A DNA stretch of 64,000 nucleotides from a virus. Its lineage: Duplodnaviria; Caudoviricetes. The position numbers were made by a program, and so were the translations under genes. Numbering within the stretch: the stretch's first letter is position 1; every line of letters begins with the position of its first letter. The notes under the pieces were generated by a model that made no database searches, had not been told where the DNA came from, and worked only from the letters and a program-made list of their open reading frames with translations. The DNA lies in the IMG/VR virus record IMGVR_UViG_3300017721_001026, positions 89,809 through 153,808 of that record, one strand, 5' to 3'. Positions 27,906 to 56,901 of this stretch are shown here, piece after piece.

Positions 27906-27998
27906 TGGAAGTGGTGGGACTCGAACCCACAACCGCGCACTAATCTGGTGCATACAGAAGGTATAAGCTTCTCGCTCTGCCAATTGAGCTACACTTCC
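27906..27998 (-). tRNA. tRNA-Ile(UAU) with a 25-nt variable region; CCA not encoded
   Basis: Acceptor GGAAGTG/CACTTCC+A; D arm GCTC-AATTGGCA-GAGC; anticodon arm AGAAG-CT TAT AC-CTTCT; T arm GTGGG-TTCGAGT-CCCAC. Confidence 0.92.
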
Positions 27999-56346: not shown

Positions 56347-56375
56347 ATTATACTCATAAAAAAAGGACCTGTCAA
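56347..56375 (-). promoter_or_regulatory. Early promoter overlapping a terminator
   Basis: TTGACA-17 nt-TATAAT. Confidence 0.85.
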
Positions 56376-56384
56376 GCAGGTCCT
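56358..56384 (-). terminator. Rho-independent terminator closing the riboswitch transcript
   Basis: AGGACCTG-CTTGA-CAGGTCCT-TTTTTT. Confidence 0.85.
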
Positions 56385-56404
56385 GATAGTCTAATACAAG
56401 TAAC

Positions 56405-56572
56405 TCACTTGCTGTAAGTACGTCCACGATAGCAGAATGTACCGTGTGTTTCCTTACTCTCTACACAACGTGTCGAGTACTTAACACCACGATATGAGGT
56501 GTGAAGAACTTGTGCGTCGTGAAGTGCAGATGCCTTGTTGATCTGCTTTCTGATCATGTTTAGTGTATTCAT
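56405..56572 (-). CDS. DUF4278-like small protein (two YRG motifs)
   Basis: 55 aa MNTLNMIRKQ...TSYRGVKY...FCYRGRTYSK; AGGAG RBS 8 nt upstream. Confidence 0.8.
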   Translation of the reverse strand: MNTLNMIRKQINKASALHDAQVLHTSYRGVKYSTRCVESKETHGTFCYRGRTYSK

Positions 56573-56636
56573 TGTAGGTACTCCTGAAGTTGGGTGAAAA
56601 TTAACCTTCTCATCTTTCGATGGATCCGTTTTTTCC

Positions 56637-56864
56637 CGTTCCTTCAGTCGTTTGCGTCCCAATACCACTCACATTCTGGTGATGATTCCTTAAGGGTCTC
56701 AACCAACTCTACCTTCAATACAGAAGATAGATTCGCATTGTTCTCAATCTTCAGCATGATAGCATCAGTTTGAGTACAAGTGAGTGTTGTATAGAATAAT
56801 AGTTCTAGCATGGGATGAACGCTCCGTTCCGCGACTTACTTGCGTCTCCCTAAGGAGATGAACG
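56637..56864 (-). ncRNA. Nested double glutamine riboswitch (glnA/Downstream-peptide family) enclosing an ORF
   Basis: CGTTC-A-TCTCC(TTAG)GGAGA-CGCAAGTA-AGTCG ... CGACT-GAAG-GAACG-G, with a second GAACG-GAG-CGTTC-A-TCCCA...TGGGA-CGCAA inside. Confidence 0.82.
56644..56811 (-). CDS. 55-aa protein encoded inside the riboswitch; absent from the ORF track
   Basis: MLELLFYTTLTCTQTDAIMLKIENNANLSSVLKVELVETLKESSPECEWYWDAND; GGAG RBS 10 nt upstream. Confidence 0.75.
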   Translation of the reverse strand: MLELLFYTTLTCTQTDAIMLKIENNANLSSVLKVELVETLKESSPECEWYWDAND

Positions 56865-56872
56865 ACAGGTCT

Positions 56873-56901
56873 ATTATAGACCGTATAATCTATTTAGTCA
56901 A
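56873..56901 (-). promoter_or_regulatory. Early promoter (with overlapping CTAAATA late motif) for the riboswitch transcript
   Basis: TTGACT-17 nt-TATAAT; predicted +1 at about 56866, right at the aptamer 5' end. Confidence 0.85.

Follow-up and report, generated by a model that had tools for sequence, protein, structure and literature searches.

How does a sensor RNA fold when a protein gene lies inside it, and what would its ligand then do to the genes of the transcript? The question is raised by a 64,000-nt stretch of DNA (positions 89,809 to 153,808 of IMG/VR record IMGVR_UViG_3300017721_001026, here called the window), which comes from a T4-like cyanomyovirus, an ocean cyanophage with a record of 153.8 kb. 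Riboswitches are normally described as untranslated leaders. On the minus strand of the window, at 56901-56357, a self-contained transcription unit with an RNA of about 510 nt holds, between promoter and terminator, a riboswitch leader and two open reading frames (ORFs) of 55 codons alone, the first of which is enclosed by the leader. Approximately 155 distinct units of this kind were gathered from IMG/VR and GenBank. Helix pairing was scored on 94 aligned relatives, alignment A4 comprises 74 sequences, and a wider tally of strands covers 166. Most of the features described below are conserved across about 150 distinct cyanomyovirus loci, and the two-gene unit, with its sensor RNA folded round the first gene, is a real and widespread layout. 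Its anatomy, the conservation and covariation of its helices and the coding status of the inner ORF can be read directly from this comparison. The leader is a predicted nested double glutamine aptamer, in which the P2 arm of an outer aptamer is replaced by a second, permuted aptamer-like core. The elements concerned are as follows, in the order of the RNA.

56860..56864, minus strand: outer helix P1, 5' strand CGUUC; pairs with GAACG 56641-56637; the RF01739 P1 in relatives without the inner gene
56845..56858, minus strand: hairpin P1a of the outer aptamer, UCUCC-UUAG-GGAGA, directly 3' of CGUUCA
56837..56844, minus strand: junction CGCAAGUA (type-I consensus CGGAAGUA), invariant in alignments A1 and A4
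56832..56836, minus strand: outer helix P2, 5' strand AGUCG; pairs with CGACU 56650-56646 and closes over the whole inner domain
56817..56829, minus strand: inner hairpin H (formerly P1'), GAACG, loop GAG, CGUUC
56811..56815, minus strand: inner stem P2', 5' strand UCCCA, including the A of AUG; pairs with UGGGA 56661-56657 across the ORF
56644..56811, minus strand: inner ORF of 55 aa (gp197; cyanophage T4-like gene cluster 430), stop codon UGA 56646-56644
56637..56661, minus strand: aptamer 3' strands UGGGA (P2'), CGCAAA, CGACU (P2), GAAG (J2/1) and GAACG (P1)
56584..56647, minus strand: helix masking the downstream ribosome-binding site (RBS), CUGAAG 56647-56642 with CUUCAG 56589-56584, enclosing the linker domain
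56622-56611, minus strand: GNRA hairpin CAUC-GAAA-GAUG in the linker domain, with a covarying stem
56572-56405, minus strand: downstream ORF of 55 aa (gp198; DUF4278-like; gene cluster 937), Shine-Dalgarno sequence AGGAG 56585-56581, two YRG motifs

Nested fold of the leader

The outer aptamer was identified through relatives that lack the inner ORF. In these, the Rfam type-I model RF01739 scores 38.6-43.6 bits, above its 35-bit cut-off; the first CGUUC is paired with the last GAACG, AGU...ACU forms P2 at the site of the outer AGUCG/CGACU, GAAG is the junction, and the remainder is treated as an insert in P2. At the window locus, no riboswitch match was returned by the Rfam scan at the gathering threshold. 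RF01739 gives 30.0 bits there (E 2e-4), a low score that is most simply due to the insert of approximately 205 nt formed by the inner core and the ORF. Both junctions that flank P2 in type I, ACGGAAGUA and GAAG, are present: the window has ACGCAAGUA, with one difference from the consensus that is shared with relatives passing the RF01739 cut-off, and GAAG at 56645-56642. Hairpin P1a displays compensatory changes at all five of its pairs among 74 relatives, with 97% of cells paired. The strands of outer P1 are invariant among relatives, covariation not being possible there, and a scan among the relatives for a compensating GCAACG variant of its 3' strand gave no matches. Outer P2 is perfectly complementary; its sole variant is A to G, which leaves a G-U pair, and no compensatory change was seen. 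By these sequence features the outer aptamer is assigned to the type-I (glnA-class) glutamine aptamers, and binding of glutamine is predicted.

The inner core consists of helix H, the stem UCCCA:UGGGA and a CGCA linker, a permuted arrangement of the type-II aptamer elements. Helix H is paired in 100% of the aligned sequences, and a G:C pair is exchanged for C:G in 7 of the 74 sequences of A4 (GC 67, CG 7). In the wider tally, GCAACG at the first GGAACG and CGUUGA at the second CGUUCA occur together in 8 of 166 distinct sequences, with zero single mutants and with the outermost strands unchanged; a tandem helix is broken in the same 7 sequences that compensate hairpin H. The inner stem P2' is 97-100% paired over its five pairs in the 94 relatives, and only C to U wobble changes are found, because UGG-GAC is coding. 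In forms without the ORF, the homologous stem covaries (UUCGC/GCGAA, UUCUC/GAGAA), and the second hairpin is a plain UCCC-loop-GGGA. Moreover, the base that follows the first GGAACG is G in 165 of 165 sequences, and the equivalent position in solved glutamine aptamers holds a “linchpin” G that makes a ligand-dependent long-range contact (PMC6698751). With constrained folding, the nested arrangement reached -76.0 kcal/mol and the tandem arrangement -73.5, a difference of 2.5 kcal/mol. The nested fold is thus favoured by the RF01739 alignments of the ORF-less relatives, by the joint GCAACG/CGUUGA changes and by constrained folding. An earlier inspection of the letters alone (the sequence-only reading) had proposed outer P1 at the 5' end, an RBS in a hairpin and an AUG in an ORF-closing stem; this structural model is borne out by covariation and by the Rfam alignments of relatives.

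A protein gene within the inner core

Judged by its pattern of change, the inner ORF is truly coding. It was found at full length in 311 phage records (tblastn), its codon entropy is lowest at position 2, followed by positions 1 and 3, and two Cys and one Trp are invariant. Lengths are 51-56 codons, apart from a few outliers of 59-66 codons that include a different ORF family. The AlphaFold2 model is a small helical bundle with a predicted local distance difference test score (pLDDT) of 79, and a comparison with Pfam gave no match. Homologues are located only on metagenome or phage-sized contigs, up to 195 kb in length.

The translation signals of this gene are parts of the aptamer. Its Shine-Dalgarno sequence GGAG (56825-56822) is composed of the last base of the H stem and the 3-nt H loop, while the A of its AUG (56811) makes the final pair of the stem UCCCA:UGGGA (56815-56811 with 56661-56657). 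The sequence-only reading had placed both signals in these two helices, and the pairings are conserved. The H spacer begins with GAG, giving GGAG, in 148 of 154 forms with the inner ORF and in 0 of 9 forms without it; GGAG is therefore taken as the Shine-Dalgarno sequence of the inner ORF. At the other end, the aptamer 3' strands double as the last five codons, W-D-A-N-D, and the stop codon. Entropy at the third codon position is 0.00-0.10 in these five codons, compared with approximately 1-1.9 elsewhere in the ORF. In phage S-CAM1 the ORF ends earlier and the same aptamer strands persist as non-coding sequence. Since the synonymous sites are frozen and S-CAM1 retains the strand without coding, the bases of the last five codons are held by constraint on the RNA.

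The downstream gene and its masking helix

The downstream protein matches PF14105 over residues 26-54 with E 6e-4 and 20.5 bits, below the 25.3-bit cut-off, and two of its 638 homologues have a precomputed PF14105 match; the gene is labelled only DUF4278-like here. A scan of genome contigs with this protein found only two loci, in metagenome-assembled genome records titled Verrucomicrobiales and Euryarchaeota (L219, L220), which are almost certainly mis-binned cyanophage contigs.

The strand CUGAAG, at the 3' side of the aptamer, is perfectly complementary in the window to CUUCAG, which overlaps AGGAG of the downstream gene, and the two strands are pairable in 94 of 94 aligned relatives. The third pair of this helix varies (GC 41, AU 40, GU 13), and across 153 units A is never found opposite C. 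In the minimum free energy (MFE) fold, at -86.4 kcal/mol, the helix is present together with two extra pairs that bracket the rest of AGGAG. The GNRA hairpin between the strands belongs to a long-linker variant seen in 25 of the 153 units, with stems AUC/GAU, UCG/CGA, AGC/GCU, UGC/GCA, ACC/GGU and UCC/GGA. Both the complementarity and the intervening GAAA tetraloop hairpin had been pointed out in the sequence-only reading, and both were recovered at exactly those positions. On the tree of the inner ORF, 10 independent pairs were obtained for the varying pair, about 8 of them agreeing in direction and 0 going against it (median p 0.008). This signal could be explained by recombination of the 3' module and is given little weight; the variation of the pair is counted as supportive, not decisive.

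Notably, the RF01739 alignment places CU of CUGAAG at the end of P2 and GAAG in J2/1, and therefore the bound outer fold and the masking helix are mutually exclusive. A strand of the aptamer thus pairs with the RBS in a manner incompatible with the predicted bound fold, as in an ON switch that acts by masking the RBS. Furthermore, GUUCAU in the 5' strand of the outer aptamer (56860-56866) is complementary to AUGAAU (56564-56572), the start codon and second codon of the downstream gene; most relatives have AUGAAC in place of AUGAAU. In the MFE fold, the OFF state, this contact is a 9-bp long-range helix, which may lock the start codon a second time or may be fortuitous.

How the switch would work

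Type-I and type-II glutamine riboswitches before DUF4278/IF17 genes are ON switches in reporters, and for the gifB leader an RBS-blocking helix melted by glutamine has been proposed (PMC6212724). For the phage unit, we infer the binding of ligand, the direction of each response and the coupling of the two genes by analogy and from the predicted folds. Without glutamine, CUGAAG would pair with CUUCAG and bury the Shine-Dalgarno sequence of the DUF4278/IF17-like gene. On binding glutamine, the outer fold would form, with P1 (CGUUC:GAACG), P2 (AGUCG:CGACU) and the junction GAAG, and would capture the CUGAAG strand; the downstream RBS would then be free and the DUF4278-like gene on. Since the homologous switches are ON switches and the RBS-masking helix is conserved, glutamine probably turns the DUF4278-like gene on.

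In the inner core, it is the terminal hairpin that extends around the 55-codon gene; the Shine-Dalgarno sequence lies in the 3-nt loop of helix H, and the AUG closes the gene-spanning stem. The inner gene could not, physically, be translated while the sensor is folded, because the Shine-Dalgarno sequence, the AUG, the last five codons and the stop codon are all aptamer strands. If the inner core binds glutamine, initiation on the inner ORF should be reduced, and such an effect of glutamine is rated as somewhat more likely than not. The inner stop codon UGA (56646-56644) lies within the masking strand CUGAAG, and therefore a terminating ribosome should also open the masking helix and free the downstream RBS. 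A stop codon inside an RBS-masking strand is the classic geometry of translational coupling by unmasking. On account of this position of UGA, the preferred reading is that glutamine alters the proportion of the two small proteins, over a clean either/or toggle, although for this ratio shift itself the chances appear evenly balanced. A bolder proposal, that the sensor has the nested genes as an integral second output, can be put forward only tentatively; glutamine would fix the RNA in the double-core fold, silencing the enclosed gene and exposing the IF17-like gene, while ribosomes on the enclosed gene would hold the sensor open.

Several observations weigh against the main account, the nested sensor with a ratio shift. 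With RF01739 the window reaches no more than 30 bits (cut-off 35), by way of a local tandem-like alignment. Outer P1 and P2 are invariant, and their pairing is supported by complementarity and by the Rfam alignment of relatives, not by covariation; the stem across gp197 shows wobble changes only. As to the masking helix, its A-U class falls within a single linker family; the varying positions are 40-90 nt apart and may travel jointly by recombination, so that the covariation may represent few events. Both hairpin H and the inner stem are predicted in the OFF fold (-86.4 kcal/mol) and likewise in the aptamer fold (-76.0 kcal/mol), and an effect of glutamine on the inner ORF accordingly requires an inner core that binds ligand. 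Finally, the aptamer fold stands 10 kcal/mol above the OFF fold in a secondary-structure model without tertiary contacts, a gap that, in this model, would exceed what the binding of glutamine alone could pay.

Among the readings of the regulation, the ratio shift is ranked first, a strict reciprocal toggle second and a passenger gene third. The toggle was the proposal of the sequence-only reading: high glutamine would switch the inner ORF off and the DUF4278 gene on, and low glutamine would do the opposite. Its downstream-ON arm agrees with the homologous switches that have been tested. It also draws on the fact that the inner Shine-Dalgarno sequence and AUG are built into the inner core while the downstream Shine-Dalgarno sequence is masked by an aptamer strand, and on the invariant G (165/165) of GGAG at the “linchpin” position, where binding of ligand should tighten sequestration (PMC6698751). 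Strict reciprocity is weakened by the stop codon in the masking strand, through which translation of the inner ORF should expose the downstream RBS, by the prediction of hairpin H and the inner stem in both states, and by 5 of the 8 double-mutant variants, in which the loop is GUUC and there is no Shine-Dalgarno sequence, showing that its sequestration is not universal. The toggle in its strict form is consequently regarded as possible but unlikely.

Slightly less likely still is the view that the riboswitch controls only the DUF4278 gene, the small genes (gp197, gp196, a further ORF of 66 codons and even a homing endonuclease) having landed in tolerant terminal loops where they borrow its promoter, and that the inner ORF is co-expressed or translationally coupled without a regulatory logic of its own. 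ORF-less forms with the same cores and masking helix exist, as this view would have it; what the three terminal loops hold differs between phages, three unrelated ORFs and a homing endonuclease being found there, and the inner ORF runs on to the first in-frame stop, which lies in an aptamer strand. Against a mere passenger, every family has its start codon placed within the closing stem, a GAG spacer occurs only where the ORF is present, the synonymous sites are frozen, and aptamer and gene are kept under joint constraint in more than 140 distinct sequences. Moreover, ribosomes on the ORF must disturb the sensor, which makes some interplay unavoidable.

It would be more surprising if CUGAAG:CUUCAG were a constitutive equivalent of type-II P2 beside the GGAACG strand, coexisting with the bound state, with regulation exerted through some other alternative structure. 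The topology is as in the P2 of RF01704, and there is a likeness between the linker CGCAAACGA and the type-II CGCAGUUCGA; type II occurs in the marine picocyanobacteria that serve as hosts (PMC6212724), and P2 of type II forms without ligand (PMC6698751). However, it is type I, not type II, that passes the cut-off on relatives without the inner gene, RF01739 uses CU in P2 and GAAG as J2/1 and so excludes this helix from the bound state, and RF01704 reaches only 26.2 bits on the window (cut-off 33), at 56867-56818, the 5' part only. This reading is considered improbable.

A simple tandem of two independent aptamers, with the ORF interrupting the second, is rejected as scarcely credible: Rfam does align 56866-56821 locally as one aptamer at 30 bits and tandem glnA RNAs are known (PMC2864571), but both P1 helices of such a tandem are mismatched in the natural GCAACG/CGUUGA variants, in which the nested helices stay intact, and the above-threshold Rfam alignments of relatives are nested.

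Promoter, start site and terminator

The flanks of the unit comprise the following elements.

56873..56901, minus strand: sigma-70-like promoter, TTGACT 56901-56896, 17 nt, TATAAT 56878-56873, 11/12 matches
56896-56891, minus strand: T4-late-like TAAATA, overlapping the -35 element; 26-27 nt 5' of CGUUCA in 42 relatives
56868..56882, minus strand: inverted repeat GGUCUAUAAUAGACC centred on the -10 hexamer, with arms that covary between phages
56357..56384, minus strand: intrinsic terminator, 8-bp stem 56384-56364 followed by a T-run

Promoter, terminator and the two 55-codon ORFs all lie where the sequence-only reading had located them. From the end of the -10 hexamer to CGUUCA (56864-56859) there are 8 nt, and the predicted +1 is near 56866. 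In related distinct units with enough upstream sequence, a sigma-70-like promoter of at least 9/12 ending 7-9 nt 5' of CGUUCA was found in 73 of 78. The arms of the inverted repeat vary in concert (GGUCUA/UAGACC, GGUA/UACC, GUGCUA/UAGCAC), and phages without the sigma-70 promoter retain TATAAATA and a separate hairpin at the site of the repeat. In any transcript started upstream, the repeat would form a 5' stem-loop. TAAATA and the repeat may thus mark transcripts that begin approximately 20 nt further upstream and carry a 5' hairpin, and the unit may have dual early and late promoters, the late transcript bearing the 5' stem-loop. The proposal that +1 falls within about 2 nt of P1 consequently stands for the predicted start near 56866; the conserved TAAATA and inverted repeat speak for a possible second start about 20 nt upstream.

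A comparable terminator is found 3' of the second gene in 122 of 158 related units. The loop of the window's terminator contains the -35 element of the next promoter, a 12/12 sigma-70 match (TTGACA-17-TATAAT, 56375-56347), which precedes the next small ORF (56325-56137). The neighbours of the unit in the window are an nrdC-like glutaredoxin gene and thyX. Elsewhere in the window, at 27906-27998 on the minus strand, is a 93-nt tRNA gene with a long variable-region insert and anticodon UAU (Rfam 61.3 bits).

Other genes enclosed by riboswitch stems

The inner loop is one of several places where the riboswitch encloses a gene. In S-IOM18, Syn10, Syn19, S-CAM1, Sf-CH3 and others, gp196 (66 aa, cluster 936) is enclosed by the outer P1a hairpin, with about 23 distinct sequences of this form. 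The stems read UCUCAUG/CAUGAGA, UCUUAUG/CAUAAGA or UCCUAUG/CAUAGGA, and the stop codon of gp196 (UGA, UAA or UAG) covaries with the bases just 5' of its own AUG, 200 nt apart. Judged from such variants, the stems that close around genes are real.

In three loci of alignment A1 (L127, L185, L188), the inner loop holds a different ORF of 66 codons instead of gp197, with a signal-peptide-like start (MKFLLPLLLL...) and an end in the aptamer-encoded D-A-N-D. A homing endonuclease gene, or a remnant ending in a helix-turn-helix, occupies the H loop, with the first GGAACG on one side and the second CGUUCA on the other, in Sf-CH5 (L231 590-1162), L149, L202 and L217; in Sf-CH5 all three terminal loops of the riboswitch carry genes. 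L114 and L217 are without the DUF4278-like gene, and at their junctions a duplicated strand GACUAAAGGAACGACUGAAGGAAAC stands before a hairpin and a further CGUUCAUCCCAUC, a pattern suggestive of recombination between repeats of the aptamer. A related phage contig with the riboswitch form that lacks the inner gene also carries a PhotoRC-II RNA (L107 1021-1116; RF01717, 57 bits).

Significance

In hundreds of phages that are abundant in the ocean, the arrangement places conserved protein genes inside aptamer hairpins; their start and stop codons serve as closing stems, and their last codons double as strands of the predicted ligand pocket. The arrangement offers a natural system for studying the competition of translation and ligand sensing on one RNA, and it makes clear how such elements escape family scans. 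The two small phage proteins, both unstudied and one IF17-like, emerge as likely tools with which to read or rewire the nitrogen status of the host, which has implications for the handling of nitrogen supply by cyanophages where the sea is poor in nitrogen. Should the tentative proposal of an integral second output hold, the RNA of about 510 nt would be a switch both bistable and gated by translation, controlling during infection the ratio between two small effectors of host nitrogen metabolism, and the three terminal loops would be general docking sites for regulated phage genes.

Comparison with known systems

That cyanophages have glutamine riboswitches, and that these are linked to DUF4278 genes, is already known (PMC2864571, PMC9964418, PMC6212724); a literature search found no account of the two-gene unit, of its double core or of the nested genes. 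The closest relative of the outer aptamer is the type-I (RF01739) leader of gifB (IF17) in Synechocystis, a glutamine-ON riboswitch acting on translation (PMC6212724). The two have in common the CGUUC/GAACG P1, a variable P1a, the junctions CGxAAGUA and GAAG and a P2 arm, and likewise a DUF4278-type gene downstream and a strand of the aptamer that can pair with the RBS. Unlike the gifB leader, the phage RNA has in P2 a second aptamer-like core in place of a small hairpin, and one of its terminal loops holds a 55-codon gene, of which the Shine-Dalgarno sequence, AUG, last codons and stop codon are aptamer parts. The copy in the window is missed at the Rfam cut-off.

With type II (the Downstream-peptide motif, RF01704; PMC6698751), the inner core shares the CGUUC:GGAACG helix, the adjacent hairpin, the CGCA linker and the G after GGAACG. 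A two-piece type-II riboswitch assembles on glutamine, and its fold tolerates broken connectivity (PMC6698751). The inner core differs from type II in being circularly permuted, GGAACG standing 5' of CGUUCA with a 3-nt loop between them, and from the two-piece form in being interrupted by a gene, not by a strand break; its binding of ligand is putative.

In T4-like cyanophages, glnA RNAs have already been annotated (PMC2864571), among them that of S-CREM1 with a 99-nt match of 44 bits (PMC9964418). These belong to the same RNA family and phage group and are given as Rfam matches only. They are probably the same double-core form without the inner gene. A leader ORF inside a sensor RNA is also known from mgtL in the Mg2+ leader of Salmonella mgtA. 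The nearest precedents are the upstream ORFs inside the glycine, cobalamin and YdaO aptamers of M. tuberculosis (bioRxiv 10.1101/2022.06.01.494293). In both of these systems, as would be the case in the phage unit, translation of the embedded ORF competes with folding of the sensor RNA. Those are short leader peptides or upstream ORFs, whereas the phage loops hold conserved families of 53-68 aa; and, unlike in mgtL or the M. tuberculosis upstream ORFs, the start and stop codons of the enclosed phage genes themselves form the closing stem.

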